Sequence record: CP033547.1
Length of the DNA stretch: 64,000 nt
Strand: one strand, 5' to 3'
Origin: a plasmid
Of this stretch, positions 5,493-38,817 are shown piece by piece. The first letter of the stretch is position 1; every line of letters begins with the position of its first letter. Made by a program: the position numbers and the translations under genes. The notes below the pieces were generated by a model that saw only the letters and a list, made by a program, of their open reading frames with translations, had not been told where the DNA came from and made no database searches.

Positions 5493-5580
5493 TTTGTTCA
5501 AAAGTCATATTTTACCTCGGAGAAACCGGACATTTTTATTGGTGAGAATATAGACACTTTAAATGGGTTCTAACACTCTC

Positions 5581-16807: not shown

Positions 16808-16929
16808 AATTTTACTATAAAGAATGAACACTAGAGGTATGGATAAAAAATCTATGCTTCTTTTGACACGATTCAAGGTATCTTCTTTCATATAAAAAAT
16901 TAAAGAATATTCCACTAAATCACTCACCA

Positions 16930-16957
16930 TTTAACATAATGGTGGTTATGCGAAGTC
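16930..16957. other. pdif-like XerD/XerC site (ATTTAACATAA-tggtgg-TTATGCGAAGT)
   Basis: 11-6-11 architecture matching the Acinetobacter plasmid pdif consensus. Confidence 0.55.
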
Positions 16958-20339: not shown

Positions 20340-20393
20340 AATTTTATGTTAAGTAGAGACTAAAAATGCCCTTGATTAAGGGCTTACAAGGGC

Positions 20394-21878
20394 TGTTATT
20401 CCCAAGTAGAAATGTCCTACCTAATAACCAAATAGAAATGTCCTATATGGACATTTCCAAGTCAAGCACAGGATTTAGATTTCGTTGTTCAATCGCTGTT
20501 TTCTGTGCTTGTCTACGTGGCATCTTTTGAGAACGATTGCGTTTGTTTTGGTGTTCCAGTTGTTCATGCTGTTGTTGAATATGTGCCAGCACAGAACCCA
20601 AACGTTTATTCTCAACGATCTCTCGCTGGTTGAGCTGACTTAATTTATCAAAGATGCTGTAATTGATTTTTCTTCCCTGATATTCAATGGCTACAGTACC
20701 ATCCGGATATTCCAAGGAACTCAAGATACTTGCCGCCCAATCTTTGATTTTCTTCGCTGTTTTCCAAGATATATACGCATTTATCATAAGTAATCGTCAA
20801 GCTGTTCGTGACCCTGCGGGGTTCACGCCAGGTAAAAACATCATCTAATTCTTCGGCTGTTTCAGCGATAGGCCGATGTAGATCCTTGGAATTAAAAGCC
20901 ATCTTGGCGAATTTACGATTAAATTGCTCAATAAAAGCACGGCAGCCACTTATTGGCATCTGCAATTGAACTGATGCCTTCTAGACGCATCTCCTTAATC
21001 AGACGATCCTGAAGTGTTCTATTCGCTCGTTCTACACGACCTTTGGCTTGAGGGGAGTTAGCGAAAATGATATCGATATTGAGAGTGCTCAGAACACGTC
21101 CAAACTGGGTAATCTTGGTGTCTTTCTTGCTACTTTGATTCACCCTAAAAACTGAATGTTTGTCACTGTAAAATGCCAATGGCTTACCATGCTGTTCGAT
21201 ATATAAACGTGTCGAAATCATATAGTCAAAGGCTGACTCTGACGCACAGAAGCGTAAATGCTGCAATTTTCCTGTGGCATCATCGATGAATACTAGCAGA
21301 CAGCATTTAGGTGCTCGACCTTCAAACCAATCATGGTGTGAGCCATCAATTTGGATCAATTCACCATAACAATCTCGGTTATAACGAGGCTGATATGGTC
21401 GTTTCAGGCGCTTGCAGCGAGGGATCCATAAATCGGCTGCAATCATCCAAGGAACGCAGGGTTTCTACTGAAAGATCGAATCCATGCACGGTGGTGAGCT
21501 TTTCATGCGCTAAAGTGGGTCCGAAACCATAAAGTTGATCTGAAACAATATTGAGACACTTAAGTCTGAGTTCTTCAGGAAGTTTAGAATTGCTGATTTG
21601 GCCACGACCGGCATGGGCTAATGCAGCGGGACCTTGAGCTTTGTATTTCTGCAGTAAGCGTCTGATGTGACGTTCTGAGATATGAAGTAGCTGAGCAGCC
21701 TGGGATTGAGTTATACGTTGATCACAGATTTCTTGCAAGACCGACAATCGTTTAAGTTCTTTATCCGACATAGACACCAACATATCAAACCGTCCGCTAA
21801 GGAAATTGCAAAAGCGCATATTCTAAAAGCGGACATTTTTACTTTGGAGAAACCGGACATTTCTATTTTGGGCTTACA
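20394..21878 (-). mobile_element. IS1202-group (ISNCY, ISAjo2-like) IS, 1485 bp, inserted 5 bp from the XerC arm of a pdif site
   Basis: Imperfect IRs TGTAAGCCCAAAATAGAAATGTCC / TGTTATTCCCAAGTAGAAATGTCC. The transposase is split over four ORFs (20443..21819). Confidence 0.8.
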
Positions 21879-21883
21879 AGGGC

Positions 21884-21911
21884 ATTTTGTATAAGGTGTA
21901 TTATGTTAATT
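21884..21911. other. pdif site XerC/XerD (ATTTTGTATAA-ggtgta-TTATGTTAATT)
   Basis: 11-6-11 architecture. Bounds the OXA-58 module. Confidence 0.65.
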
Positions 21912-21973
21912 TTAGAATTTCTTCATTAGATAATTTTTGATAAGCTAAATCCATTAGGACTAATTAAGTAAAT

Positions 21974-22790
21974 ATGAGCAATTGGGTCAATGTCACACAG
22001 GATAAGTCTACAGGTATAGAACTAATTCATGCCCACTTCAAAGGCTTTGCATACGATCCTCATCTACACTCAAGTTATCTTATAGGGGTAACAGAGTTAG
22101 GACATCAACAATTCAATTGTAGAAAAAAAAAATTATTGATAGCTATCAAGGTCAAACTTTCATGCTTGAACCTGAAGAAGTTCATGATGGTAATGCACCA
22201 GATCCTCTCGGCTTCACTTATAAAATGATGCATTTAGATCCAGCATGGTTAAAAAAAAAGCTATGAAGGAATATTTAATGAGCCTATCGAACTTGCTATC
22301 GAATCAACCCTACGTTCTGATCCTCAACTTTCACATTTGATACTTTCAACCTACAATATATTGAATAACAATGAATCTCAATTGATGAAAGATACGTATT
22401 TAGATCTTTTATTAGAAAACTTAGTAAATAAAAAAATTTTATATAAACGTGAAAAGTCTATCCAGACATTACCTAATATTGCATTAAAGCTAAAAGAAAT
22501 TTTACATGAAAGTCTCTTTCATGATTTAGACTTACAAACACTCTCAACATTGGTGAAAACAGATCGTTTTTATATTAACCGTGTATTTAAAAAAACTTTA
22601 ACTGTTCTCCACATCAATATCTGATCCAACTCCGTTTAAATAAGGCAAAAGAATTGTTAAGAAAAGGATTATCAGCAACAACTGTTGCTTCATATCTTTG
22701 TTTTTCTGATCAAAGTCATCTAGGTCGATGGTTTAAACGTTGTTATGGCATAACATTGAATCAATATCAAAAGCGTGCACAAATGTTCTA
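21974..22790 (+). pseudogene. araC1: AraC-family regulator araC1 of the OXA-58 module, frameshifted at poly-A runs
   Basis: N-terminal cupin region and a C-terminal HTH (SDQSHLGRWFKRCYGIT) in different frames. A10 runs at about 22126 and 22250. Confidence 0.65.
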
Positions 22791-22842
22791 GATATATCTT
22801 GAAGATATTTATCAAACTAGCCAAATAGTTTATTAATTTTTG

Positions 22843-23456
22843 GATTTTATTTTGGAAACGATTTTAGCTTTTTGTGCCTTTTCTTTTGTTGCATCAATTA
22901 CTCCTGGACCAACCAATTTCCTTATTCTTAGTACAAGTCATCAATTCAGTATTAAAAAACATTAGGCTTAATCTTCGGTGGAAGTATTGGTGCTGCATCA
23001 TTAGTCTTAATTACAGGACTTGGAATTGGTACAACACTCAATGAATACCCCAAGATTCAATTAATATTAAGTTTCACTGGCGGCATTTGGTTAAGCTATA
23101 TTGGATGGAAAATTTTTAATTATAGACCTGATCTAGAATCTAAAATCCAAAATCAAAATAAGAAAAATGGTTTTTTTACAGGCTTCTTTTTACAGTTTAT
23201 CAACCCTAAAAGCTGGTTGATGGCTATTGCTGTTATTACTGTTTATACAGCACAACTAGCTAACTACTATCAGTCACTCATTCTATTTTCATTCATCTTT
23301 ATGCTGATTTCTCTACCTTGTTTATTTATTTGGGCTTATTTAGGAAAAATCACAAAAAAAATACTTTCTACAGCTCATCATATGGTGCTCTTTAATCGAG
23401 TATTAGGTACTGTTTTACTTATTTCAGTATGGTATCCAATATTGCATGCTATTTAA
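22843..23456 (+). pseudogene. lysE: LysE-family amino-acid exporter of the OXA-58 module, frameshifted
   Basis: PGPTNFLILS motif and the C-terminal ORF 23217..23456, in the expected position after araC1. Confidence 0.65.
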
Positions 23457-23478
23457 CATAATGGGCGTTATACGAAAT
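23451..23478. other. pdif site XerD/XerC (ATTTAACATAA-tgggcg-TTATACGAAAT)
   Basis: Direct reading of the sequence. Confidence 0.7.
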
Positions 23479-23688
23479 GCAGCACAAATTGAAAAATATA
23501 AAAATCAAAAACTTATGATATAAATTATTTGCTCGATGATGTTCAAAAGCCGACTTGGAAACAAGTCGGCTTTTTTTATGAGCAGTTTTGATAGTTCTTG
23601 CCAATAAATTTGACTAAAAATTACGCTTCTCAACTTGAGTTATACAATTTTGTGATACATTATTGTATATACAAATTTGAATGTTTTT

Positions 23689-23978
23689 TATGGAACAGTA
23701 TTTTTGAATGGGATGAGGCTAAGAATCGAAAGAATCAGAAAAAGCATGATATCTCTTTCGAAACTGCAAGCCTTGTTTTTGAAGATCCATTACGGATCTC
23801 AATCCAAGACAGACATACCGATGGTGAAGAACGTTGGCAAACCATTGGACGAGTTAAAGGCGTACTAATGTTATTGGTGGCTCACACCATTTTTGATGAA
23901 GATGACTGTGAAATCATACGAATCATTAGTGCAAGGCAAGTGACTAAAGCGGAGCGAAACAAATATGAGCATGGTTAG
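23689..23978 (+). CDS. brnT: BrnT toxin (DUF497/RelE-fold), with a +1 frameshift in a T run near 23703
   Basis: Reconstructed MEQYFEWDEAKNRKNQKKHDISFETASLVFEDP... Confidence 0.65.
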
Positions 23979-24306
23979 ATACTCACGCAAAGAGCTGAAT
24001 GAGAAATTTGGTGAGAAGCAAGATGCTGAAATTCAACGCTTGCTTGCTAAAGGCACGGTTCCTGATGATCAGCTAGATCTATCAGATATTCCTGAAATTA
24101 CCGATTGGAGCAGTGCTGTACGCCAAAATCAATTTTACCGCCCAGTGAAGCAACAAACTTCAATTCGGTTAGATGCTGATGTACTTGCTTGGTTCAAAGC
24201 ACAAGGCAAAGGTTATCAAACACGAATGAATGAAATTTTACGGGATGCTATGCTGAAAGAATTAAAAATCATCAATAAAAATGGGAGCTTAAGCTCCCAT
24301 TTTTGA
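23965..24306 (+). CDS. brnA: BrnA antitoxin (CopG/RHH family)
   Basis: Partner of brnT, with overlapping start. A terminator hairpin lies at its 3' end. Confidence 0.65.
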   Translation: MSMVRYSRKELNEKFGEKQDAEIQRLLAKGTVPDDQLDLSDIPEITDWSSAVRQNQFYRPVKQQTSIRLDADVLAWFKAQGKGYQTRMNEILRDAMLKELKIINKNGSLSSHF

Positions 24307-24333
24307 CTTCGCATAACGCCCATTATGTTAATT
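24306..24333. other. pdif site XerC/XerD (ACTTCGCATAA-cgccca-TTATGTTAATT)
   Basis: Direct reading of the sequence. Confidence 0.7.
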
Positions 24334-24366
24334 TTAGTTTTCCTTAATACGACAAAAATATCTACT

Positions 24367-24898
24367 TCATTTCACGAGAATTTCTTTTGCTAAAAGTTCT
24401 TCTTTCGTTACACCGAAATATCTTATTTCTAATTTAGGCCTGCCTAACATCTTTAAAAGATTGTTTTCATCATTTATATTTTTTATAGCTTTGCTTACAC
24501 AATCAATTACGTCATTAGTTTTAGAAATAGCTTCTTTTTCAGATACTTGATCGCTTACTTTTCGAGATATTAAGTCATCAAAATATATCCTATATTCTTC
24601 ACAAACTAGATAAAAATAAGGGTCTAATCTATCTAAATCATATTCAGATTCAAAGGGTTTACGATCTAATAAATCTTTTTCAGGATAAATAATCAATTGT
24701 CCTGCATCGAACCAAAACTCCACAGAAAAAATTATCAAACTCAATTCCATTTAAATCATTACTAAAATTTTGAAAATACTGTAATAAAAGATTTTCTATA
24801 TCCTCTAAAAACTCTTTATTCTTAATATCAAATATTAAAGATTCATTAGAAATAGCTTTGATACAATCTTCTTGAATATCTAACCCCTTTAAAGTCAT
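24367..24898 (-). CDS. Hypothetical protein (probably a single frameshifted gene) forming an orphan pdif module
   Basis: Two overlapping ORFs (24367..24750 and 24680..24898) between two pdif sites. Confidence 0.35.
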
Positions 24899-24948
24899 TT
24901 TTACTCCATTTAAATTTTTAGGTTTTGGTGCATTAAGAATTTTGATTA

Positions 24949-24976
24949 ACTTAACATAATGGCGGTTATACGAAAT
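24949..24976. other. pdif site XerD/XerC (ACTTAACATAA-tggcgg-TTATACGAAAT)
   Basis: Direct reading of the sequence. Confidence 0.7.
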
Positions 24977-25040
24977 TCACCGTTTCGAGCCCCAAATATC
25001 AAGTTTATTTCTTGCATAAATGTATCCTATAGGATACATT

Positions 25041-25349
25041 CTACTTATGTACTCAATATATACCACTGAAGTCTTTGATGACTGGTTCACCAAGTTAAAA
25101 GACCAGCAGGCAAAAAGACGCATACAAGTCCGAATTGATCGGGTTGAAGATGGAAACTTTGGAGATACTGAGCCGGTCGGTGAAGGTGTTTCTGAATTAC
25201 GTTTCTTCTTTGGGCCAGGCTATAGGATTTATTACTGCAAGCAAGGGCAAAGGGTTGTTATTCTTTTAGCAGGCGGAGATAAGTCTACGCAAAGTAAAGA
25301 TATAAAACTTGCCCTGCAATTGGCACAAGATTTAGAGGAGGAGCTATAA
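25041..25349 (+). CDS. RelE/HigB-like addiction-module killer toxin
   Basis: MYSIYTTEVFDDWFTKLKD...VVILLAGGDKSTQSKDI, typical of killer proteins paired with an HTH antidote. Confidence 0.65.
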   Translation, partial: LLMYSIYTTEVFDDWFTKLKDQQAKRRIQVRIDRVEDGNFGDTEPVGEGVSELRFFFGPGYRIYYCKQGQRVVILLAGGDKSTQSKDIKLALQLAQDLEEEL

Positions 25350-25631
25350 ATGGCTATTAAACTTCGCAAATGGGACAGTGCTGAGCATCTTAAAACAGAG
25401 GATGATATGCAGGCTTACTTACAAGCATGTATTGAAGAATCTAATGGCGATGCCGCATTCATTGCAAAGGCTTTAGGTAACATTGCAAAAGCTAAAGGAA
25501 TGGCTCAATTATCACGAGATACAGGCTTAGGCCGAGAAAGTCTTTATAAAGCACTTTCTGGTGATGTTAACCCTAGTTTTGATACTGTGATTAAAGTTGT
25601 AAAAGCACTGAATTTACGCTTAGCAATTTAA
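25350..25631 (+). CDS. Addiction-module antidote / HigA-like HTH antitoxin
   Basis: Follows the toxin immediately (ATG at 25350 overlaps the toxin stop). Confidence 0.6.
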   Translation: MAIKLRKWDSAEHLKTEDDMQAYLQACIEESNGDAAFIAKALGNIAKAKGMAQLSRDTGLGRESLYKALSGDVNPSFDTVIKVVKALNLRLAI

Positions 25632-25672
25632 AAAGTTATTAAAAAATGGAGCTTTAGGCTCCATTTTTTTAA

Positions 25673-25700
25673 TTCTCGTATAAGGTGTATTATGTTAATT
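25673..25700. other. pdif site XerC/XerD (TTCTCGTATAA-ggtgta-TTATGTTAATT)
   Basis: Direct reading of the sequence. Confidence 0.65.
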
Positions 25701-25710
25701 TTAGAAATTC

Positions 25711-26136
25711 TTAATTTCCATCTATCCAAACTTGCTTGATCCAATCTGCTAAATCTTCCCACTGCTCATCGCTATATCCATCTGCTGTCCAATATCTAAT
25801 TTTATGATTAGGAGATAGGCAATAATAACTACCATTATCTTCACAAATAGGTAGCCAATCTTCTGGCAGACCTTGCTCCCTAGCATCATTTAATATCTGA
25901 GATAGCCCTCGATAGCATTCTTTCTCATCTGTAAGAGACGCTAATTCAATTGTTCCATAAAAGATATTGCTAATCTCTTTCAAAACTTTTTTATAATCTT
26001 TTGGAAAAATAAAACCTATTTTTCGTTCATAAGCAGATATGAAAATATCATCAGGTAGTTCTATGTTTAGACGACTATTCCCAGATAGTTCTTTTAATTC
26101 TTGAATAATGTTATCAAGCTTATTTTGCATATACAT
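25711..26136 (-). CDS. SMI1/KNR4-family protein
   Basis: 141-aa protein with an SMI1/KNR4-like sequence. Sits in its own pdif module. Confidence 0.5.
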   Translation of the reverse strand: MYMQNKLDNIIQELKELSGNSRLNIELPDDIFISAYERKIGFIFPKDYKKVLKEISNIFYGTIELASLTDEKECYRGLSQILNDAREQGLPEDWLPICEDNGSYYCLSPNHKIRYWTADGYSDEQWEDLADWIKQVWIDGN

Positions 26137-26167
26137 TCTGCTCTATCGCATTAAAGTTCTTACTACA

Positions 26168-26195
26168 ATTTAACATAATGGCTGTTATGCGAAAC
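26168..26195. other. pdif site XerD/XerC (ATTTAACATAA-tggctg-TTATGCGAAAC)
   Basis: Direct reading of the sequence. Confidence 0.65.
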
Positions 26196-26269
26196 GAGAT
26201 CTACCAGCTCTCGTTTTTGTTATGGAAACTGCTAAAATTCAAATACGCCATTGACGTATAAAGAGTCCA

Positions 26270-26590
26270 TGTTATTTATTGAAACCAGCATCTTTACCAA
26301 GCAAATTAAAGACCTTGTATCTGATGAGGAATATCGTCAACTTCAGCAAGATCTTTTTGGTACAGCCTGATAGAGGTGACCTAATCAAGAATGGCGGTGG
26401 TATTCGCAAAGTACGTTGTGCTCAAGGTAACAAAGGGAAAAGTGGTGGGATACGGGTGATTTATTATTGGGTCACCGAGGATGATCAGATCTTTTTCTTA
26501 GTGGCTTATCCAAAATCAGTAAAAGATAATTTAACAGATAAGGAAACCGCCATTCTGCACCAACTCGTGAAGGAGCAATTTCATGGATAA
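26270..26590 (+). CDS. higB: HigB-type toxin (RelE family), frameshifted near 26360
   Basis: N-terminus MLFIETSIFTKQIKDLVSDEEYRQLQQDL in one frame, then QPDRGDLIKNGGGIRKVRCAQGNKGKSGGIRVIYYW in ORF 26279..26590. Confidence 0.65.
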   Translation, partial: CYLLKPASLPSKLKTLYLMRNIVNFSKIFLVQPDRGDLIKNGGGIRKVRCAQGNKGKSGGIRVIYYWVTEDDQIFFLVAYPKSVKDNLTDKETAILHQLVKEQFHG

Positions 26591-26855
26591 CAACTTATTT
26601 GATGACTTGGTTGCTTCAATCAAAGAAGCTGGAGCTATCAAACGTAAAGAAGTTAAAGCAAGCCGAGTTACAGAACTCGAATTGCCTGATATTAAAGAAG
26701 TACGTGAAAAAACTGGCTTGAGCCAAAATGAATTTGCTGCACGTCTACATATTAGCCCCCGTACCCTGCAAAATTGGGAACAGGGACGACGCTATCCAAC
26801 TGGACCAGCAGCTACATTGATTCGAATTTTAGATGCTCACCCAAGCCTTATTTGA
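26583..26855 (+). CDS. higA: HigA antitoxin (XRE HTH)
   Basis: HTH LSQNEFAARLHISPRTLQNWEQGRR. Confidence 0.7.
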   Translation: MDNNLFDDLVASIKEAGAIKRKEVKASRVTELELPDIKEVREKTGLSQNEFAARLHISPRTLQNWEQGRRYPTGPAATLIRILDAHPSLI

Positions 26856-26895
26856 AAAATTACTTAAAAAATGGGAGCTTAAGGCTCCCATTTTT

Positions 26896-26923
26896 ATTTC
26901 GTATAAGGTGTATTATGTTAATT
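26896..26923. other. pdif site XerC/XerD (ATTTCGTATAA-ggtgta-TTATGTTAATT), preceded by a terminator hairpin at 26871-26897
   Basis: Direct reading of the sequence. Confidence 0.75.
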
Positions 26924-27271
26924 TTAGAAAATCTTCACTACTATTATTTTAAAATAAGCCTTATATCCAAGCATAAAACAAGGTTGTCTAGACTTCTTTT
27001 AACAGTAAAGTTATCATAAAACTGAATTTTTATTTTTTAGGTAAGTTTATGCATTCTATCCGCATTCGTTAAGACACAACTATTTGCATAGTGACACTAT
27101 TTTATAATGGTGGGCTTTTGTTGTGTCTTTAAGAATATATGCGGATATATAAAGTAAAAGTATGCTTAATTTATAAGTATGCTTTTAGTGCATAGTTTCC
27201 AGTTATAACTTAATTGACTAGCTATTTGTCCACCCTGTGGATGAATAGCTTTTTTTTGGGAGGACACTGTG

Positions 27272-27331
27272 ATGCTAGCTTTTGTTTTTCACCTAAATCC
27301 TGTTTGCTGCATAAAAAATTTCAAGAGCTAA
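27272..27331 (+). promoter_or_regulatory. msr(E) leader peptide ORF (MLAFVFHLNPVCCIKNFKS) / attenuator region
   Basis: 19-codon ORF 16 bp upstream of msr(E), like the leader peptides of macrolide-resistance genes. Confidence 0.5.
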
Positions 27332-27347
27332 ACAGGAGTAAATAAAA

Positions 27348-28822
27348 ATGAGTTTAATTATTAAAGCGAGAAACATACGCTTGGATTATGCTGGGCGTGA
27401 TGTTTTGGATATTGATGAATTGGAAATTCACTCTTATGACCGTATTGGTCTTGTGGGTGATAACGGAGCAGGAAAGAGTAGTTTACTCAAAGTACTTAAT
27501 GGCGAAATTGTTTTAGCCGAAGCGACATTACAGCGTTTTGGTGATTTTGCACATATCAGCCAACTGGGCGGAATCGAAATAGAAACGGTCGAAGACCGGG
27601 CAATGTTATCTCGCCTTGGTGTTTCCAATGTACAAAACGACACAATGAGTGGCGGAGAGGAAACTCGTGCAAAAATTGCTGCCGCATTTTCCCAACAAGT
27701 ACATGGCATTCTAGCGGATGAACCAACCAGCCACCTTGATCTCAATGGAATAGATCTACTTATTGGTCAACTTAAAGCATTTGATGGAGCATTACTTGTT
27801 ATCAGTCATGACCGATATTTTCTTGATATGGTTGTAGACAAGATATGGGAGTTAAAAGACGGTAAAATTACGGAATATTGGGGTGGTTACTCGGATTACT
27901 TGCGTCAAAAAGAAGAAGAGCGACAACACCAAGCCGTAGAATATGAGCTGATGATGAAGGAACGGGAGCGATTAGAATCTGCTGTGCAAGAAAAACGCCA
28001 GCAAGCTAATCGATTAGACAATAAGAAAAAAGGAGAAAAATCCAAAAACTCTACCGAAAGTGCTGGACGACTTGGGCATGCAAAAATGACTGGCACCAAG
28101 CAAAGAAAACTGTATCAGGCAGCTAAGAGTATGGAAAAGCGTTTGGCTGCATTAGAAGATATTCAAGCACCAGAGCATTTGCGTTCTATTCGTTTTCGTC
28201 AAAGTTCAGCCCTAGAACTGCACAATAAGTTCCCGATTACGGCAGATGGTCTGAGCTTAAAATTTGGTAGCCGTACTATCTTTGATGACGCTAACTTTAT
28301 AATACCGCTTGGCGCTAAAGTCGCTATAACTGGATCGAATGGAACAGGGAAAACGTCCTTGTTAAAAATGATATCAGAACGTGCTGATGGATTAACCATA
28401 TCTCCAAAAGCTGAAATTGGCTACTTTACACAAACAGGATATAAATTTAACACGCATAAATCTGTGCTCTCCTTTATGCAGGAAGAGTGCGAGTACACAG
28501 TTGCGGAAATTCGTGCAGTATTGGCTTCAATGGGGATCGGAGCGAATGATATTCAAAAAACTTATCCGACTTATCGGGAGGTGAAATCATCAAACTGCTT
28601 TTATCCAAAATGCTTTTAGGAAAATATAATATTTTGCTTATGGATGAACCATGAAACTATCTTGACCTAAAAAGTATTGCCGCATTAGAAACAATGATGA
28701 AGTCCTATGCAGGAACTATTATCTTCGTATCTCATGACAAGCAATTGGTCGATAATATTGCTGACATTATCTACGAGATCAAAGACCACAAAATCATCAA
28801 GACTTTTGAGAGAGATTGTTAA
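27348..28822 (+). pseudogene. msr(E): ABC-F ribosomal protection protein Msr(E), disrupted by a 1-bp deletion near 28566 and an in-frame TGA at 28652-28654
   Basis: First 405 aa match Msr(E) ([45 protein letters not shown]...). The remainder ([34 protein letters not shown]...KTFERDC) is in another frame. Confidence 0.85.
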
Positions 28823-28877
28823 TGATAGCCAATCTAATCCGAACATTAATTATTGAACTCTTTAAAGGAAATTAAAA

Positions 28878-29765
28878 ATGACAATTCAAGATATTCAATC
28901 ACTTGCTGGAAGCACACGGCTTGTTGCTTACGGACAAAATGAATTTCAAATGAAATGGGCATTGATTTTAAGGTCGTTTTTGCTCTTGATACAAAGGGGC
29001 AACAATGGTTGCTGCGTATTCCTCGTCGTGATGGCATGAGGGAACAAATCAAGAAAGAAAAACGCATTTTAGAATTGGTAAAAAAACATCTTTCTGTAGA
29101 GGTTCCTGATTGGAGAATTTCATCTACAGAATTAGTGGCTTATCCCATACTTAAAGATAATCCTGTTTTTAAATTTGGATGCTGAAACCTATGAAATAAT
29201 TTGGAATATGGACAAAGATAGCCCGAAATACATAACATCTTTGGCAAAAACCTTATTTGAAATCCATAGTATTCCTGAAAAAGAAGTTCGGGAAAATGAT
29301 TTGAAAATTATGAAACCTTCAGATTTAAGACCTGAAATAGCAAACAATTTGCAGTTAGTAAAATCTGAAATTGGTATAAGTGAGCAATTGGAAACCCGCT
29401 ACAGAAAATGGTTGGATAATGATGTTCTATGGGCAGATTTCACCCAATTTATACATGGCGATTTATATGCTGGGCATGTACTAGCTTCAAAGGATGGAGC
29501 TGTTTCAGGCGTTATTGATTGGTCAACAGCCCATATAGATGACCCAGCGATTGATTTTGCTGGGCATGTAACTTTGTTTGGAGAAGAAAGCCTCAAAACT
29601 CTAATCATCGAGTATGAAAAACTAGGGGGTAAAGTTTGGAATAAACTATATGAACAGACTTTAGAAAGAGCAGCGGCCTCTCCTTTGATGTATGGTTTAT
29701 TTGCCTTAGAAACTCAAAATGAAAGCCTTATCGTTGGAGCAAAAGCTCAGTTGGGAGTTATATAA
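28878..29765 (+). pseudogene. mph(E): Macrolide 2'-phosphotransferase Mph(E), with three or more +1 frameshifts near 28890, 28950 and 29160
   Basis: MTIQDIQSLA...MGIDFKVVFALDTKGQQWLLRIPRRDGMREQIKKEK...HGDLYAGHVL matches Mph(E) across three frames. Confidence 0.85.
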
Positions 29766-29876
29766 TTTAAAAATATGATTGCTGAGAACTGCCTTGTTTT
29801 GAAACTTGGTTGGCTTTAATTAGTTTTTAGTATTCTTTATAGAAAATGCCTCGATCAAGGGGCATTTCTAACAATC

Positions 29877-29904
29877 ATTTAACATAAAATTTCTTATGTG
29901 AAGT
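29877..29904. other. pdif site XerD/XerC (ATTTAACATAA-aatttc-TTATGTGAAGT), preceded by terminator hairpin 29843-29869
   Basis: Direct reading of the sequence. Confidence 0.6.
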
Positions 29905-29910
29905 AACCTG

Positions 29911-31397
29911 TGTAAGCCCAAAATAGAAATGTCCGGTTTCTCCAAAGTAAAAAATGTCCGCTTTTAGAATATGCGCTTTTGCAATTTCCTTAGCGGACGG
30001 TTTGATATGTTGGTGTCTATGTCGGATAAAGAACTTAAACGATTGTCGGTCTTGCAAGAAATCTGTGATCAACGTATAACTCAATCCCAGGCTGCTCAGC
30101 TACTTCATATCTCAGAACGTCACATCAGACGCTTACTGCAGAAATACAAAGCTCAAGGTCCCGCTGCATTAGCCCATGCCGGTCGTGGCCAAATCAGCAA
30201 TTCTAAACTTCCTGAAGAACTCAGACTTAAGTGTCTCAATATTGTTTCAGATCAACTTTATGGTTTCGGACCCACTTTAGCGCATGAAAAGCTCACCACC
30301 GTGCATGGATTCGATCTTTCAGTAGAAACCCTGCGTTCCTTGGATGATTGCAGCCGATTTATGGATCCCTCGCTGCAAGCGCCTGAAACGACCATATCAG
30401 CCTCGTTATAACCGAGATTGTTATGGTGAATTGATCCAAATTGATGGCTCACACCATGATTGGTTTGAAGGTCGAGCACCTAAATGCTGTCTGCTAGTAT
30501 TCATCGATGATGCCACAGGAAAATTGCAGCATTTACGCTTCTGTGCGTCAGAGTCAGCCTTTGACTATATGATTTCGACACGTTTATATATCGAACAGCA
30601 TGGTAAGCCATTGGCATTTTACAGTGACAAACATTCAGTTTTTAGGGTGAATCAAAGTAGCAAGAAAGACACCAAGATTACCCAGTTTGGACGTGTTCTG
30701 AGCACTCTCAATATCGATATCATTTTCGCTAACTCCCCTCAAAGCCAAAGGTCGTGTAGAACGAGCGAATAGAACACTTCCAGGATCGTCTGATTAAGGA
30801 GATGCGTCTAGAAGGCATCAGTTCAATTGCAGATGCCAATAAGTGGCTGCCGTGCTTTATTGAGCAATTTAATCGTAAATTCGCCAAGATGGCTTTTAAT
30901 TCCAAGGATCTACATCGGCCTATCGCTGAAACAGCCGAAGAATTAGATGATGTTTTTACCTGGCGTGAACCCCGCAGGGTCACGAACAGCTTGACGATTA
31001 CTTATGATAAATGCGTATATATCTTGGAAAACAGCGAAGAAAATCAAAGATTGGGCGGCAAGTATCTTGAGTTCCTTGGAATATCCGGATGGTACTGTAG
31101 CCATTGAATATCAGGGAAGAAAAATCAATTACAGCATCTTTGATAAATTAAGTCAGCTCAACCAGCGAGAGATCGTTGAGAATAAACGTTTGGGTTCTGT
31201 GCTGGCACATATTCAACAACAGCATGAACAACTGGAACACCAAAACAAACGCAATCGTTCTCAAAAGATGCCACGTAGACAAGCACAGAAAACAGCGATT
31301 GAACAACGAAATCTAAATCCTGTGTTTGACTTGGAAATGTCCATATAGGACATTTCTATTTGGTTATTAGGTAGGACATTTCTACTTGGGAATAACA
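29911..31397 (+). mobile_element. IS1202-group (ISAjo2-like) IS, 1487 bp, inserted about 5 bp from the XerC arm of a pdif site
   Basis: Same IRs as the copy at 20394. The transposase is split over four ORFs (29971..31348). Confidence 0.8.
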
Positions 31398-31450
31398 ACA
31401 GATGCTTTTTAAATTGTGTTATAATTCAGTATGCTAACACCTAGTTTACA

Positions 31451-31482
31451 GCCCACTCACCCTCGAGTGGGCTTTTTTTATG
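31451..31482 (+). terminator. Rho-independent terminator (cagcccactcaccctcgagtgggcttttttt)
   Basis: GC-rich hairpin plus T7. Confidence 0.6.
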
Positions 31483-31782
31483 ATTTTTCACGTTCCACGC
31501 CTATTCTTTAATCAATGTTCCACGGTTTTATTTAATGTTGCTGAACAATCAATGGATACCAGTAAAGCCCTTTAGGTCTTCTGTTGCTTCAAATATAAAG
31601 TCTCTACGATCAAGGATTAGACAATCTTTATTGTGTCGTCTGACTGATCTTGTGGCTTTGCTAATATCATGGCAATCCCAAGATTTGGGATAATACTTTA
31701 TTAAAGAACGGACAATCTTGTTTTTATATTCTGAGGTTTTCTATAATCTTAATTATGTTACATAATCAAGATTGATAATAAA

Positions 31783-32300
31783 AATGACGCAAAATAAGCA
31801 TGGTGGTGCACGCAAAGGTTCTGGCCGTCCTTTTTGTCTATAACGAACCGACCAAGGTCATTCGGGTGCCAGAGTCTCGTGTATTGGAAATCAAGAAATA
31901 CCTGAAAAAAAATGACACTCCAAAGTTTAACGATATTTCCTCTATTACATTGCTTGGAGACAAAAACACATTATGAGATTCCTGTTGCTTTGCAAAAAGT
32001 TGCTGCAGGCTTCCCTTCCCCTGCTCAGGACTATATCGATAAGACCCTTGATCTAAACGAGTTTCTTATTCAAAACCAACAGGCAACCTTTATCGTTGAA
32101 GTGGAATCCTTATCCATGCGTGATGCAGGGATTGATCTGAATGACAAGCTAATCGTTGACCGTAGTATTGAAGCCAAGCATGGGGATATTGTTCTGGCAT
32201 TGATAGACAATGATTTTACGATTAAACGTTTAATGATTGAGGGTAATCAATGCTGGTTGCAGGCGGCTAATCCTGATTTTGCTGATATCTATTTGAAAGA
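31783..32300 (+). pseudogene. umuD: UmuD-like protein (second copy), frameshifted in its N-terminal extension
   Basis: MTQNKHGGARKGSGRPF...EPTKVIRVPESRVLEIKKYL...VAAGFPSPAQDY...SMRDAGI...KRLMIEG. Confidence 0.7.
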
Positions 32301-32329
32301 TAATCAAACCATGCTGATTTGGGGTGGGG

Positions 32330-32798
32330 CAAGTATGTACAGGATGCGGTCATACGTTTACGAGCAGACGCTTCCTTATGTGGATGTGTCATTGCTTTTG
32401 TGCAATCGAATCCTTTTGATTCAAAGGTTCCCTATTACAGTAAATCGTTGGCTTTTGAGTTTCCTGAACCGACGGATTGTGTTTTGGATCTGATTAAAAC
32501 AGCTATGCAACTGCTGGAACACATTTATAAATCTGACGTGAAATATAAAAAGTGTGGTGTAATTCTGACGGATTTAATTGCTAAGCAGCGCTTTACTCCT
32601 GACCTGCTGACGGACCACAGCCAGCGTGAAAGTAATGAAAGCCTCATGCAGACTTTAGAAGCGGTACAGGCGAGATATGGGAAAACTAAATTAGCTGTTG
32701 GCAGCTGCTACTTGCCACAACGAAAGTGGTCCATGAATCGTACCCATTTGACCCAAAACTATTTCAGCTGGCAGGGATTATTAAAGATCAGCCATTAA
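32330..32798 (+). pseudogene. umuC: umuC C-terminal remnant, fused directly after umuD by an internal deletion of most of umuC
   Basis: The 159-aa ORF aligns with the last ~150 aa of UmuC at 57240..57725 (KYKKCGVILTDLIAKQRFTPDLLTDHSQRE). Confidence 0.65.
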
Positions 32799-33051
32799 AT
32801 TAATTAGCCTCACCTATTTGGTTTAAGTCAGCTTAATGAAGAACTCGACACATAAGCCGACACAGGCTTGATCCTCAGTCAACCATTTAACAACGTAAGT
32901 ATGTTGTTTGGGATCCATGTAACACCTCTCGAGGAAAAGGTGGTTAGTAATAAAACTCTGCTCAAGCAAATTTATTGGGTTAACTGTCAGTTTTCACCAT
33001 CTCATGTCCTTTATTTCTAGAACATTCTAGACTTTTCTCGACCTAGAATTT

Positions 33052-33246
33052 TTATTCTTTAAAGGTGTCATTCAACGCCTGTTGCACAGCATCAATACGT
33101 AATTTGCAGGCTTTATAGGCAGTCATGGACTCTTCAACGATCGCCATAAGGTTATCAATATCCGGTTCTTCCTGAGATTCAAGAAATTCGGCATTTTTCT
33201 TGAGAATTTCATAACCTTTCTTGAAACTTAGTTCTTCATTGTTCAT
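33052..33246 (-). CDS. xseB: Exodeoxyribonuclease VII small subunit
   Basis: 64-aa XseB-like protein directly downstream of xseA. Confidence 0.65.
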   Translation of the reverse strand: MNNEELSFKKGYEILKKNAEFLESQEEPDIDNLMAIVEESMTAYKACKLRIDAVQQALNDTFKE

Positions 33247-34503
33247 GTGCGTTTACCTGTGTCACGGTGGCATCAATGGTGCCATCCTTAAGTTCAATCT
33301 GTAATTGCTGGTCAGTAATCTGCTGTATGGAACGGATGGCTTTGCCTTGGCTACGGACAATTGCATAGCCCTTGGCCATCACATTACGTGGATTCTGTAG
33401 CAAGGTTTCCCTCATCAATGACTCTACCTGCTGTGAAGCTAGTTTAATCTGTTGTTGAGCAAGATACTTAGTATCACTCTTCAGCATATCAACTCTACGT
33501 TGGGCTTCATTGATCTGGTTCTGTGTCAGAGTTTTGATAGTTTTCAGATACTGATCACTCTGGCTCTGGTAGGTGATCAACTGGTGCTGTGACAGTAGCT
33601 TGATGGTCTGCAAAGCAGTACTAACTTCATTGACTCGCTCCACAATCAGGTTACGGATCCCTGCGATCACTTTACTCGGAGTATCAAAGGAACGGTGTGC
33701 AATTTCATCCAAAATAGTGTGGTCTTTCTCGTGGCCAATACCGACCCAGATAGGCACAGTTCTTTTTACACAGCAGTGCGGCCAGATCATAATCATTCAG
33801 GTAAGCTAGGTCATTCACGGCTCCACCACCACGGATAATCACAATAAGGTCTGGTGCTATCAAGTAATCTTGAGCCCACTGTCTTAAGGCACGGCCCAAA
33901 ACCTGAATGATGCTGGCAGAAGCAGTATTACCCTGAAAAGTTGCTGAATGATAAACGAAATGGCAGACACCAGCCTGAGCCAGGGCATCCGCATCTTTTT
34001 AAAGTCACCTAACCCTGCAGCATTTTCCGGTGCAATGACCAAGACATTCTGAATATCAAAGGGTACCGGCAACTGTTTATTGTTATTGAGCAGGCCTTCC
34101 TCAGTCAGTCGCAGCAGAATCTGCTGATAGCGTTTGGCGATGTCTCCTAGAGTAAAGCTAGAGTCGATATCTTCGATATTGACCGAGAAGCCATATTGCG
34201 GATCAAATCTAGCTTTGACCTTGATCAGTACATTCAGGTCTTTCGACAGTTCAATACCACTTTCTCGTTCAAACTTTAGAACTATTTTTGTGCCGTAAAT
34301 TTCCAAATGGTGCCTTTACAACTAGCGATCACCTTATGGCTTTCTTCATCTTTCTCAGCCAACTCAAGATAATAGTGACCGCCTTTAATACTTAAATTAC
34401 GGATCTCAGCCTTGACCCACACTGCCCCATCAAAAGTCAGATGGATGACTTCCTGTACAGTGGCAAGGTATTCACTAAGGCTGAGTTGTTGACGTTCTGA
34501 CAT
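33236..34503 (-). CDS. xseA: Exodeoxyribonuclease VII large subunit, split into 4 ORFs by frameshifts
   Basis: N-terminal OB-fold region, then RGGGAVNDLAYLND and the C-terminal coiled-coil region, spread over successive frames. Confidence 0.65.
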
Positions 34504-34719
34504 GATGTAAAGGATAGCTAAAATATAAGGAGGTGAGATTTAACCTAATATTGATCAATTCTACTGCAAATCAGATGAGTTTATTGCAATTTTGAGAAAT
34601 GTATAAGTTCTTCTTAGACACCTAGAGTGATCATTGAGATTTTTAGTTTAATTATACTTTTATATTAAAATAGATATATAATCAATAAAATCATTATATT
34701 TTACTATTTTAATAAAATT

Positions 34720-36024
34720 ATGAAGCAATACTGTACACTGCAAATCTACCAAGACTATGAATGGCATGACTGTGCTTTGGTTGAGGTTACGGATGATCAA
34801 AATGCTGGATGGCAGGCAGCTACACGTACATCATATTTGTTCGAATATGCTATTTCATATATGGATCTAAGAGATGGTCATGCGCTTGCTTATGACTTAC
34901 CAGTGAACGTTCAAAATAGATTGGAATCAACTTGGCCAGCATTTCTTATGGATCTATTACCTCAAGGATACGGCCGCAAAGAATTACTAATACAGCTTGA
35001 TTTTTCTGAGAATGTTCAGGAACAAGCGGACTGGGCGCTTTTAAAAGCAGGCGCAGGAAATCCAATTGGGAATCTGCGAGTCAAAGAGGCTCATGAGTGG
35101 TTACAAAGTCATTTCCCAAAGCTGCAGAATCAGGGATTTAGCCTAAGCCAAATTATTGAACGTAAAGAGAAGTTTATTGAATCGCTCGCATCTTATGGAC
35201 TTTTTATTGCTGGTTCATCTGGTATTCAGGGTGAGTGGCCAAAATTGTTGTTAACACAAGGTTATGATGATCTTTTCTATCTAGATCATACTCTTCCAGA
35301 TGATCAAGTTAAGCAGCATTGGTTGGTTAAATTTAGCCGCGGCAGTGATCAAAATTTGAATAAAATCCTGATGAACGAAGCTTTGTATATGAAAGTCGCT
35401 CAGTACTTGCAACTACGTGTACACCGGGATCTTGAGCTACATGGCAAGACTTTGTTTATTCCAAGATTTGATCGCAAAGTAATTAATGGCAAAGTTGAAA
35501 GAATTGCTCAGGAAAGCCTTGCATCTCTAGGTGGGAAGGCGGGCTTTGGGGTTAGAATGACCCATAATCAAATATGTACCCTGCTTATGGAGGCTTGTAC
35601 CGAACCAAAGCAGGAAGTATTTGAGTATTTGAAGCGTGATCTCGCAAATGTTGCCTTAGGCAATAAAGATAACCATACTCGCAATACAGCAATCCAACGC
35701 TTCAATAATGGTAAAATTCAGCTCACACCATTATTTGATTTTGCGCCAATGTGGTTACATCCTGATGGTATTGCACGTACTACTCGTTGGGAAAGAGATG
35801 ATCATGGTGGTATGCCACTTTTGAGTTCTGTGATTGAGCAGATAGCTGAAAGCACTTCGATTGGTCCACAAGAAATTAAAACTTTATTAATTGAACAGTT
35901 ACCAATTTATCGGGGATTGTTAGAAAAGATGCAGGCTCTTCAAGTAGCGGATGAAATTCTGGAAAATAGCCAATATCGAATAATCAATATTTGCCAGCAG
36001 TTGGAGGAGATCAGCCATGGATAA
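34720..36024 (+). CDS. hipA: HipA-family serine/threonine kinase toxin
   Basis: 434-aa protein with HipA N-terminal and C-terminal kinase domains (NKDNHTRNTAIQRFNNGKIQLTPLFDF). Confidence 0.75.
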   Translation: MKQYCTLQIYQDYEWHDCALVEVTDDQNAGWQAATRTSYLFEYAISYMDLRDGHALAYDLPVNVQNRLESTWPAFLMDLLPQGYGRKELLIQLDFSENVQEQADWALLKAGAGNPIGNLRVKEAHEWLQSHFPKLQNQGFSLSQIIERKEKFIESLASYGLFIAGSSGIQGEWPKLLLTQGYDDLFYLDHTLPDDQVKQHWLVKFSRGSDQNLNKILMNEALYMKVAQYLQLRVHRDLELHGKTLFIPRFDRKVINGKVERIAQESLASLGGKAGFGVRMTHNQICTLLMEACTEPKQEVFEYLKRDLANVALGNKDNHTRNTAIQRFNNGKIQLTPLFDFAPMWLHPDGIARTTRWERDDHGGMPLLSSVIEQIAESTSIGPQEIKTLLIEQLPIYRGLLEKMQALQVADEILENSQYRIINICQQLEEISHG

Positions 36025-36235
36025 ACGTTTTAAACCATTGACCCCTATTCAACAAATGGAAAAAAGACTATCTGTGCTTGAAACCATCAATAATCATCCA
36101 GACTGGTCTTTTTATCAAGTTGCTCGATTTATTCGAACAGAGCTACATTTAACACTGAATGATATGGCTAAAATTACTAAGATTGCGCCACAGACACTGC
36201 AAAAATGGAGCAACCAGGGAGCAATCCTACTTTGA
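36017..36235 (+). CDS. XRE-family HTH protein (HipB-like) overlapping the 3' end of hipA
   Basis: HTH LTLNDMAKITKIAPQTLQKWSNQG. 8-bp overlap with hipA. Confidence 0.5.
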   Translation: MDKRFKPLTPIQQMEKRLSVLETINNHPDWSFYQVARFIRTELHLTLNDMAKITKIAPQTLQKWSNQGAILL

Positions 36236-36388
36236 AATCCATGCAGAAATTACTCGATACTTTCGGTTTACAATTACAAATAAAAGTTAAATGATTTTTA
36301 ATTCTGAGCCATCGGTTTTTCTAAAATCTTATCCGTTTAAGGATACAAAGAGGAAATAAACAGGCTCTAGGTTGTTTTATGATTATTT

Positions 36389-36610
36389 TTAGACAAACGA
36401 CTCCAAAACCTTATGTAGCAAGGGTTTTGTCTCTACAGTAATTAATTTATTTTTGAAAAAATGGAGTAGAGTGTTTGAAATATGAATAATCGAATTCCGA
36501 GTTTCTGTAAGCACAGCAATTTCATCTGCATGTGCTTTATATTCATCTATATTTTCGAGTAATTCATCCTCTGAGAATGGGAGTTTTTTTTGATTTTCAG
36601 TGTCGTTCAT
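36389..36610 (-). CDS. Hypothetical protein (73 aa)
   Basis: ORF only. Confidence 0.25.
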   Translation of the reverse strand: MNDTENQKKLPFSEDELLENIDEYKAHADEIAVLTETRNSIIHISNTLLHFFKNKLITVETKPLLHKVLESFV

Positions 36611-36703
36611 AGAGTCATATCCTGAGAAGTTATTTAGATCATCATAAACCAGACATTTTTAATGGTGAGAATACAGACACTTTAAATGGTTTCTAACAAG
36701 ATT

Positions 36704-38187
36704 TGTTATTCCCAAGTAGAAATGTCCTACCTAATAACCAAATAGAAATGTCCTATATGGACATTTCCAAGTCAAGCACAGGATTTAGATTTCGTTGTTC
36801 AATCGCTGTTTTCTGTGCTTGTCTACGTGGCATCTTTTGAGAACGATTGCGTTTGTTTTGGTGTTCCAGTTGTTCATGCTGTTGTTGAATATGTGCCAGC
36901 ACAGAACCCAAACGTTTATTCTCAACGATCTCTCGCTGGTTGAGCTGACTTAATTTATCAAAGATGCTGTAATTGATTTTTCTTCCCTGATATTCAATGG
37001 CTACAGTACCATCCGGATATTCCAAGGAACTCAAGATACTTGCCGCCCAATCTTTGATTTTTCTTCGCTGTTTTCCAAGATATATACGCATTTATCATAA
37101 GTAATCGTCAAGCTGTTCGTGACCCTGCGGGGTTCACGCCAGGTAAAAACATCATCTAATTCTTCGGCTGTTTCAGCGATAGGCCGATGTAGATCCTTGG
37201 AATTAAAAGCCATCTTGGCGAATTTACGATTAAATTGCTCAATAAAGCACGGCAGCCACTTATTGGCATCTGCAATTGAACTGATGCCTTCTAGACGCAT
37301 CTCCTTAATCAGACGATCCTGAAGTGTTCTATTCGCTCGTTCTACACGACCTTTGGCTTGAGGGGAGTTAGCGAAAATGATATCGATATTGAGAGTGCTC
37401 AGAACACGTCCAAACTGGGTAATCTTGGTGTCTTTCTTGCTACTTTGATTCACCCTAAAAACTGAATGTTTGTCACTGTAAAATGCCAATGGCTTACCAT
37501 GCTGTTCGATATATAAACGTGTCGAAATCATATAGTCAAAGGCTGACTCTGACGCACAGAAGCGTAAATGCTGCAATTTTCCTGTGGCATCATCGATGAA
37601 TACTAGCAGACAGCATTTAGGTGCTCGACCTTCAAACCAATCATGGTGTGAGCCATCAATTTGGATCAATTCACCATAACAATCTCGGTTATAACGAGGC
37701 TGATATGGTCGTTTCAGGCGCTTGCAGCGAGGGATCCATAAATCGGCTGCAATCATCCAGGAACGCAGGGTTTCTACTGAAAGATCGAATCCATGCACGG
37801 TGGTGAGCTTTTCATGCGCTAAAGTGGGTCCGAAACCATAAAGTTGATCTGAAACAATATTGAGACACTTAAGTCTGAGTTCTTCAGGAAGTTTAGAATT
37901 GCTGATTTGGCCACGACCGGCATGGGCTAATGCAGCGGGACCTTGAGCTTTGTATTTCTGCAGTAAGCGTCTGATGTGACGTTCTGAGATATGAAGTAGC
38001 TGAGCAGCCTGGGATTGAGTTATACGTTGATCACAGATTTCTTGCAAGACCGACAATCGTTTAAGTTCTTTATCCGACATAGACACCAACATATCAAACC
38101 GTCCGCTAAGGAAATTGCAAAAGCGCATATTCTAAAAGCGGACATTTTTACTTTGGAGAAACCGGACATTTCTATTTTGGGCTTACA
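36704..38187 (-). mobile_element. IS1202-group (ISAjo2-like) IS, best-preserved copy, inserted about 6 bp from the XerC arm of a pdif site
   Basis: Transposase largely intact (365-aa ORF 37031..38128 plus 112-aa ORF 36753..37091). Same IRs as the other copies. Confidence 0.85.
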
Positions 38188-38193
38188 AAGATT

Positions 38194-38221
38194 GCTTCAC
38201 ATAAGAGATTTTATGTTAAAT
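38194..38221. other. pdif site XerC/XerD (GCTTCACATAA-gagatt-TTATGTTAAAT)
   Basis: Direct reading of the sequence. Confidence 0.6.
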
Positions 38222-38254
38222 GTCTTTTTTCATTGCTCTCTGAACTGTTGCAAT

Positions 38255-38392
38255 ACCTACAAACAAAATAAACGCAATCGTTCTCAAAAGATGCCAAGCA
38301 GACGTGCACAGAAAACAGTAATCAAAGAACGAAATCTGAATCCTGTGCTTGACTTGGAAATGTCTGTATAGGACATTTCTACTTGGGAATAA
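38255..38392 (+). mobile_element. 3'-terminal remnant (~135 bp) of another IS1202-group copy on the other side of the same pdif site
   Basis: Encodes ...NKRNRSQKMPSRRAQKTVIKERNLNPVLDLEMSV and ends TTCTACTTGGGAATAACA. Confidence 0.7.
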
Positions 38393-38817
38393 CATCATCA
38401 TGCTATATAAGTATTTAACCGTATTCTTTTATTTTTTGGCGCACCATGTATATAGATACAAAAAAAAGCAATTATTGGATAAATTAATATAGCTCCACCT
38501 GCTCGACCATCTACGGATGGAGATAAGGACATGCTTAAAACAATAAATACAATAAGATATAAAATATAACATGTTCCCCAAGTTAATAATCCAAAGAGTA
38601 TAGGGAAACAAAATTTTGAAATAACTCCAAAGGGCTTCGATCTTTTATAGAGATGCTTTTCAAAAGATTATTCGAAATATTAACAGCAACAATTGTCATA
38701 AATAGATTAAAAAGCAGAAAATAAAGCATACTAAAAATTAAATATGAAAAATAATTTATTATATATTAGTTGATTAAATTTAACATTAATTAAAATATAC
38801 GTTTAAAGATAAGCAAT

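Follow-up and report, generated by a model that had tools for sequence, protein, structure and literature searches.

The window analysed here, a stretch of 64,000 nucleotides from the plasmid record CP033547.1, contains three full-length copies of ISApi2, an insertion sequence (IS) of the IS1202 family, each of which lies beside a plasmid dif (pdif) site. The plasmid is of the Acinetobacter blaOXA-58 / msr(E)-mph(E) type and belongs to the lineage of pOXA58_005069, CP059478 and CP033537. The blaOXA-58 gene is located upstream of copy 1, and the interval between copies 1 and 2 contains small dif modules in an array together with msr(E)-mph(E). A BLAST search of the window with copy 1 returned three full-length copies (99.7–100% identity) at exactly the boundaries that an earlier note, made from the letters of the DNA, had given for them. 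A tblastn search with the transposase for additional, divergent copies in the window found none. Copies 2 and 3 are also present in pOXA58_005069, whereas copy 1 is absent and its site is empty there.

We classified the element by megablast against PLSDB. Over its full length it is 99.9% identical to the 1482-bp elements in CP033536, CP051863 and MK134375, three accessions that Harmer, Pong & Hall 2023 (PMC10132070) list as ISApi2 in their Table 4; the matches comprise 260 PLSDB records, all of them from Acinetobacter. The name rests on these accessions together with an isoform criterion of >95–98% nucleotide identity. On sequence grounds the element is ISApi2, an ISAjo2-type (cluster 1) member of the ISAba32/ISAjo2 subgroup of the IS1202 family. 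The label IS1202-group, ISAjo2-like, given to it earlier, named the right group, though not the element itself. The assembled copies measure 1484–1487 bp, can be aligned over their full length to the 1482-bp reference and exceed it by +1 insertions only, in agreement with the 1481–1482 bp of the type. The reference copy has TGT...ACA termini and an imperfect terminal inverted repeat (TIR) with 19/26 matches (24–26 bp with 19–20 matches in the family), and all three window copies have the same ends with 0 mismatches. The inner 19 bp of the TIR are repeated internally at nt 32 on the left (3 mismatches) and at nt 34 on the right (2 mismatches).

The open reading frame (ORF) of the transposase gene (tnp) encodes 441 amino acids in the reference (457 from an upstream ATG), with D142, D203 and E247 at the published positions. 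The protein matches NCBIfam NF033594 (ISNCY family transposase) with an E-value of 3.9e-145; Pfam finds HTH_28/HTH_23/HTH_29 at its N-terminus and, weakly, rve_3. A PDB sequence search with the transposase gave no match to any solved structure, so that its resemblance to TnsB/Mu is taken solely from published modelling. All testable defining features of an ISAjo2-type IS are present.

Sites of the pdif type were located by a scan for an 11-bp XerC arm, a 6-bp spacer and an 11-bp XerD arm (TTATGTTAAAT or TTATGTTAATT), which yielded about 12 sites in the window. The three sites next to the ISApi2 copies (Table 1) have a perfect XerD arm and an XerC arm with 1–2 mismatches to NNTTCGTATAA. Site orientation alternates from 21884 to 29904, as in dif-module arrays; the XerC and XerD sites are predicted from the letters. 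In 3/3 full copies the left inverted repeat (IRL; tip TGTAAGCCC), the end at which tnp starts, is directed towards the XerC arm. The junctions, when compared, bore out the statement of the earlier note that the same IS end faces the XerC arm at 5–6 bp: as assembled, the gaps are 5, 6 and 6 bp in copies 1, 2 and 3. With 12 XerC arms in the window, we calculate p ~1.9e-4 for a random insertion that lies 5 or 6 bp from an arm and is correctly oriented, and ~7e-12 for three such insertions (a rough estimate).

Targeting of dif sites by ISAjo2-type elements has been published before (Harmer, Pong & Hall 2023, PMC10132070; Siguier et al., bioRxiv 10.1101/2022.12.17.520857; Moran et al. 2022, PMC9455709), and Moran et al. 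reported it for ISApi2 itself; a detailed analysis followed in 2023. These studies describe a constant orientation, with IRL and XerC arm separated by 5 (sometimes 6) bp, and a target site duplication (TSD) of 5–6 bp. The same literature confirms the statement of the earlier note on dif-like targeting by ISAjo2-group elements, and its proposal that pdif modules and this IS family interact is supported, the three full copies being further clean examples. We consider it very probable that the three ISApi2 copies each arrived by a separate targeted transposition beside a pre-existing pdif site.

Table 1. Features of the ISApi2-associated pdif sites and of related IS sequences in the window (IRR, right inverted repeat; IS-X, an ISAba32-like element of cluster 2, see text).
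Feature	Position	Strand	Details
Truncated cluster-1 variant	5581-6701	-	87.8% identity to ISApi2, IS nt 364-1485; without IRL, without adjacent pdif
Second IS-X IRL remnant, 53 bp	5523-5575	-	CTCTC between remnant and IRR of the 5581 variant
ISAjo2-type IRL tip, 9 nt	20380-20388	-	TGTAAGCCC; exactly 5 bp from XerC arm in copy-1 empty site
Left TSD of copy 1	20389-20393		AGGGC; single AGGGC in reconstructed empty site
ISApi2 copy 1	20394-21878	-	IRR 20394, IRL 21878; 1485 bp assembled vs 1482-bp reference
Right TSD of copy 1 = IRL-XerC gap	21879-21883		AGGGC
pdif next to copy 1	21884-21911	+	ATTTTGTATAA-GGTGTA-TTATGTTAATT (C-spacer-D); araC1 side of blaOXA-58 region
pdif next to copy 2	29877-29904	-	ACTTCACATAA-GAAATT-TTATGTTAAAT
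Copy 2 IRL-XerC gap	29905-29910		AACCTG, native flank
ISApi2 copy 2	29911-31397	+	IRL 29911
Junction after copy 2	31398-31405		ACAGATGC; relatives have ISApi2-ACAGA-IS-X-ACAGC
Cargo between inverted copies 2 and 3	31406-36633		umuD / truncated umuC, xseB-xseA, hipA, helix-turn-helix (HTH) regulator; annotation of homologous stretch in pOXA58_100004
IS-X-like (cluster 2, ISAba32-like) IRL remnant, 65 bp	36634-36698	-	exactly 5 bp from XerC arm of pdif 38194 in empty site
Left TSD of copy 3	36699-36703		AGATT; empty site in pOXA58_100004
ISApi2 copy 3	36704-38187	-	IRR 36704, IRL 38187
Copy 3 IRL-XerC gap	38188-38193		AAGATT = TSD AGATT + one extra A
pdif next to copy 3	38194-38221	+	GCTTCACATAA-GAGATT-TTATGTTAAAT
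IRR-end remnant, 131 bp	38264-38394	+	cluster-1 IS, 88.6% identity to ISApi2, closest to 5581 variant

Versions of the sites without ISApi2 were found in other plasmids. When the flanks of copy 1 are joined with one AGGGC, the resulting 264 nt have 100% identical counterparts in more than 100 plasmids of Acinetobacter, among them pACICU1, pXBB1-9 and pOXA58_005069. Since this empty site holds one AGGGC, the TSD of copy 1 is 5 bp long and the pdif site is older than the IS. A 14-bp TSD (GGGCTTACAAGGGC) was also considered for copy 1 and rejected, because the terminus TGTAAGCCC is fixed by other insertions (CP033536, TSD GCTAT) and the 9-mer is already present in the empty site.

For copy 3, the uninterrupted site in pOXA58_100004 reads ...CTAACA AGATT GCTTCACATAA GAGATT TTATGTTAAAT. 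The same insertion in pOXA58_005069 has a 5-bp gap with AGATT only (gggcttaca-agatt-gcttcacataa), and the sixth base of the gap in the window, an A in a run of A, is therefore most likely an assembly error. A real 6-bp TSD, suggested by a 6-bp overlap of the two flanks when aligned to the empty site, was downgraded in view of the 5-bp gap in the sister plasmid and the homopolymer-error pattern described below. In copies 1 and 3 the TSD thus consists of the bases directly next to the XerC arm, and the choice between 5 and 27 bp, which the earlier note had put forward as a check, falls to 5 bp. A TSD of this length, and not of 15–17 or 27–28 bp, assigns the element to the ISAjo2/ISAba32 subgroup. 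The transposase and TIRs are related to those of IS1202 proper and the ISTde1 subgroup, but these have TSDs of 27–28 bp or 15–17 bp and do not target Xer sites (PMC10132070; bioRxiv 10.1101/2022.12.17.520857).

The IS-free plasmid pAS4-1 shows ...TTATGTGAAGT AACCTG AATGCAGCGG... at the locus of copy 2, its XerC-arm side ending in ...GAAGT. Because AACCTG is native in pAS4-1, the 6-bp spacing of copy 2 is real; it is also found in pOXA58_005069. With the reference ISApi2 the window copies share the 1482-bp architecture, TIRs, internal repeats, DDE residues, orientation, 5-bp TSD and the distance of 5 (occasionally 6) bp to the XerC arm; they differ from it by 2–5 extra single bases each, which are probably assembly errors.

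The proximity of IS and pdif could in principle reflect coincidence or wrongly assigned IS ends, the latter having been named in the earlier note as a possible refutation. We found nothing in favour of this explanation and assign it practically no probability: the match to the 1482-bp reference and the empty sites both define where the IS ends lie, and the chance value given above stands against it. A further explanation would be that Xer or homologous recombination spread copies of one ancestral IS–pdif unit through the plasmid, without independent insertions. As pOXA58_005069 also carries copies 2 and 3, these were inherited, not inserted in this plasmid, and copy 2 has no TSD, both of which would suit such a unit. 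Against it, the TSDs of copies 1 and 3 are intact and the corresponding empty sites occur in other plasmids, and copy 2 has the flank that is native to pAS4-1. Moreover, the three junctions differ in their XerC arms (ATTTTGTATAA, ACTTCACATAA and GCTTCACATAA), spacers and 5–6 bp flanks, so that on this count the insertions are independent and the spread of a single unit is excluded. Taken as a whole we regard the ancestral unit as very improbable; what the junctions record is three independent insertions beside pre-existing pdif sites.

Several points nevertheless weigh against separate targeted transposition. Copy 2, with ACAGAT next to its IRR, has no TSD and a gap of 6 bp, so that only position and orientation speak for the insertion of this copy. 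No IS end in the window carries the reciprocal flanks of copy 2 (AACCTG or ACAGA), i.e. no recombination partner was found. In the assembly, frameshifts interrupt each of the three tnp genes; if they are real, the copies are now inactive but still record past targeted insertions. Finally, the recognition of the site is not visible in the letters, and contact with XerC is a published hypothesis rather than a result.

The history of copy 2 can be followed in relatives of the plasmid. At this locus pOXA58_005069 contains ISApi2, ACAGA, a complete element of 1481 bp (IS-X, cluster 2; ~70% identity to ISApi2 and ~91% to elements annotated ISAba32-like) and then ACAGC-TTTTTAAATTG. The arrangement in the window, ISApi2-ACAGATGC-TTTTTAAATTG, equals that of pOXA58_005069 minus nt 3–1481 of IS-X and 4 nt of the right repeat, so that 2 nt of IS-X are left in the junction. 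This junction (ACAGA-TG-C) looks like the product of a footprint-like deletion of the whole IS-X; no PLSDB plasmid has the same IRR junction.

For the missing TSD of copy 2 we propose two steps. Homologous recombination would have taken place between an ISApi2 at the pdif site of the mph(E) module and an ISApi2 at the pdif site before IS-X, and IS-X would have been deleted later. This sequence of events is the most likely origin of the TSD loss. Siguier et al. (bioRxiv 10.1101/2022.12.17.520857) found 4/61 targeted copies without direct repeats and gave the same recombination explanation. IS-X is found next to another pdif site in pLHC22-2 (CP084298), where 15 bp (AACAACAACAACAGA), instead of 5 bp, separate the full element from the XerC arm. 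The repetitive ACA/ACAAC spacer at this position may be a record of earlier cycles of insertion and loss.

Based on the literature, the following mechanism can be proposed for the insertions. A single TnsB/Mu-like DDE transposase, with two N-terminal HTH domains and a catalytic core, would bind the TIRs and the internal repeats. Movement would probably proceed via a circular copy-out-paste-in intermediate, as suggested by circular IRR-5 bp-IRL forms of the relative ISKpn21 (Siguier et al., bioRxiv 10.1101/2022.12.17.520857). The strand-transfer complex could then be placed by contact with site-bound XerC or with the architecture of the XerCD-pdif complex, which would set both the 5-bp offset and the orientation; positioning of this kind is the proposal of both groups (PMC10132070; bioRxiv 10.1101/2022.12.17.520857). 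According to PMC10132070 the element resembles Tn7, with its TnsB and its TnsD-directed insertion at attTn7, in the TGT/ACA termini, the repeated transposase-binding sites at the ends, the 5-bp TSD and insertion in one orientation at a constant distance from a site occupied by protein. The IS differs from Tn7 in that it has no TnsA, TnsC or TnsD/E homologues and encodes one protein only. An inspection by eye for a promoter across the hypothetical circle junction (outward -35, inward -10) gave no convincing match, and we do not use it as evidence.

Targeted transposition could also work through a direct readout of dif-like DNA or its intrinsic shape by the transposase, with no contact to XerC or XerD. 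The single protein encoded by the IS would be compatible with this, as would the XerD arm and the terminal ATAA of the XerC arm, both conserved in the three targets, and recognition of the site architecture is listed as a possibility by Siguier et al. (bioRxiv 10.1101/2022.12.17.520857). On the other hand, only 6/11 positions of the XerC arms are invariant among the three targets, and the spacers differ. Published logos of 78 targeted sites show neither the arms nor the spacer to be conserved for a given IS, and what the sites would have in common is XerCD binding, not sequence. The variable XerC arms would fit a bound protein or DNA shape better than strict sequence recognition. We therefore regard direct readout as possible, if rather doubtful. 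In the literature up to 2026 we found no experimental resolution of the recognition step, and the sequence of the window adds nothing on the way in which one transposase locates the XerC side of dif.

The copies of ISApi2 are not identical, as the earlier note had remarked, and indeed differ as assembled, although the differences are probably mostly sequencing noise in the form of single-base insertions in short runs. In an alignment to the 1482-bp ISApi2, 7/8 differing positions are +1 insertions in short runs and one is a substitution; two of the insertions lie in CCTGG contexts and one is common to all three copies. The DNA outside the IS differs from the sister plasmid pOXA58_100004 nearly only by +/-1 homopolymer indels at ~1 per 400–700 bp (for example at 29166, 33763, 38460 and 39157), and mph(E) and xseA are frameshifted. 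The window is probably an unpolished long-read assembly, and the pattern could stem from either record. A majority consensus of the three copies, tried as a source of an intact tnp, retained frameshifts, two of the insertions being present in two or three copies; alignment with the reference ISApi2 resolved this.

If the mutations were real, the three ISApi2 copies would instead be decaying, frameshifted and inactive pseudogenes, and copy 3 would have a true TSD of 6 bp. The differences are present in the sequence as given, and distances and TSDs of 6 bp are documented for the ISAjo2-type group. We nevertheless consider this quite improbable, in view of the prevalence of +1 changes in short runs (two at the same CCTGG context), the same kind of indels in the non-IS DNA, including the frameshift in mph(E), and the 5-bp gap of copy 3 in pOXA58_005069. 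The assembly needs polishing before statements on transposase integrity can be made.

Two of the three sites were occupied earlier by older family members, whose IRL remnants were left distal to the newer copy. At the site of copy 3 the remnant is derived from an IS-X-like element, and ISApi2 later entered between this 65-bp remnant and the pdif site. At the site of copy 1 the remnant is probably the 9-nt tip at 20380–20388. This 9-mer occurs 4 times in the window (0.27 expected), the other three occurrences being the IRL tips of ISApi2. The tip is probably the scar of an older cluster-1 insertion that became fixed in the common flank of the blaOXA-58 module. Partial copies that keep the IRL at 5–6 bp, and successive insertions of which the newest is closest to the site, were also described by Siguier et al. 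(bioRxiv 10.1101/2022.12.17.520857). One may speculate that the pdif sites of this lineage form a layered fossil record of repeated occupation and loss (the 9-nt tip, the IRL stubs of 53 and 65 bp and the ACAGA-TG-C junction), with scars left by a specific process (transposase-mediated excision, or Xer- or IS-end-promoted deletion sparing the IRL tip) and not by random deletions. We think this unlikely; if true, it would add a new aspect to the interaction of IS and dif modules.

Two further partial copies belong with ISAjo2, ISAba71 and ISAso2, the cluster-1 'dif site hunters', which share family, length, end structure and targeting with ISApi2, have ~90% nucleotide identity to it (PMC10132070 Table 2) and are separate IS by ISfinder identity criteria. 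The variant at 5581, which the earlier note had put at roughly 90% identity, is present (87.8%) but truncated and without an adjacent pdif site. It is cut at IS nt 364 by an IS6/IS26-family element (6702–7470; inverted repeat GGCACTGTTGCAAA at 6704; transposase ORF 6765–7469), and this truncation removed the IRL and any adjacent pdif site. Together with the 53-bp IS-X remnant beside it, the segment 5523–6701 is a former tandem array. The supposed truncated fourth copy abutting the pdif site at 38194 turned out to be the 131-bp remnant at 38264. It starts 42 bp beyond the XerD arm, has its IRR end pointing away from the pdif site and is not an example of targeting. A 26-bp deletion lies between its TIR and the internal repeat. 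The remnant does not reach up to the XerD arm. Since it also occurs in pOXA58_100004, which lacks ISApi2 copy 3, the remnant predates the ISApi2 insertion.

The targeting behaviour as such is already known; the window adds three clean examples, and empty or IS-free versions of all three sites are known. Mildly new are the use of TTCACATAA XerC arms as targets, the loss of IS-X with what looks like a footprint and, in the common flank of the OXA-58 module, the scar of an IRL tip. The XerC arms of the pdif sites at 29877 and 38194 both end in TTCACATAA, and an arm with this ending is not among the examples in the tables of PMC10132070. For annotation, the IS copies flag pdif sites, two of them with these unusual arms, and they explain rearrangements near the blaOXA-58 and msr(E)-mph(E) resistance modules.

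The pdif sites at 29877–29904 and 38194–38221 bracket a segment composed of ISApi2, umuDC/xse/hipA and ISApi2. Their XerC arms are similar and atypical, and the spacers are AT-rich. With XerC arms directed inward and both ends holding inverted ISApi2, the segment is formally a C-type dif module. Within its cargo an 855-bp deletion relative to pOXA58_100004 is found at 32326/32327, so that umuD lacks its 3' end and umuC, the gene of a Y-family polymerase, its 5' two-thirds.

An unoccupied pdif site, ACTTCGCATAA-CCACCA-TTATGTTAAAT, is located at 16929–16956. Past its XerC arm (flank to ~16985) follow CGACT and then the near-palindrome TGTAATGCAATTTGCATTACA, which begins with TGTAA at a distance of exactly 5 bp from the arm. 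On the other strand CGACT reads AGTCG, a published TSD of ISAba71 at a similar site. The TGTAATGCAATTTGCATTACA flank may be another IS scar or a terminator hairpin. At 20300–20355 an IS end (GGCAGCATACTTTTTGAAGCACCACC), which we take to be ISAba3-like, adjoins the XerD-like arm TTATGTTAAGT at 20345–20355. The IS terminus occupies the position of the XerC arm, and the arrangement looks like half a pdif site.

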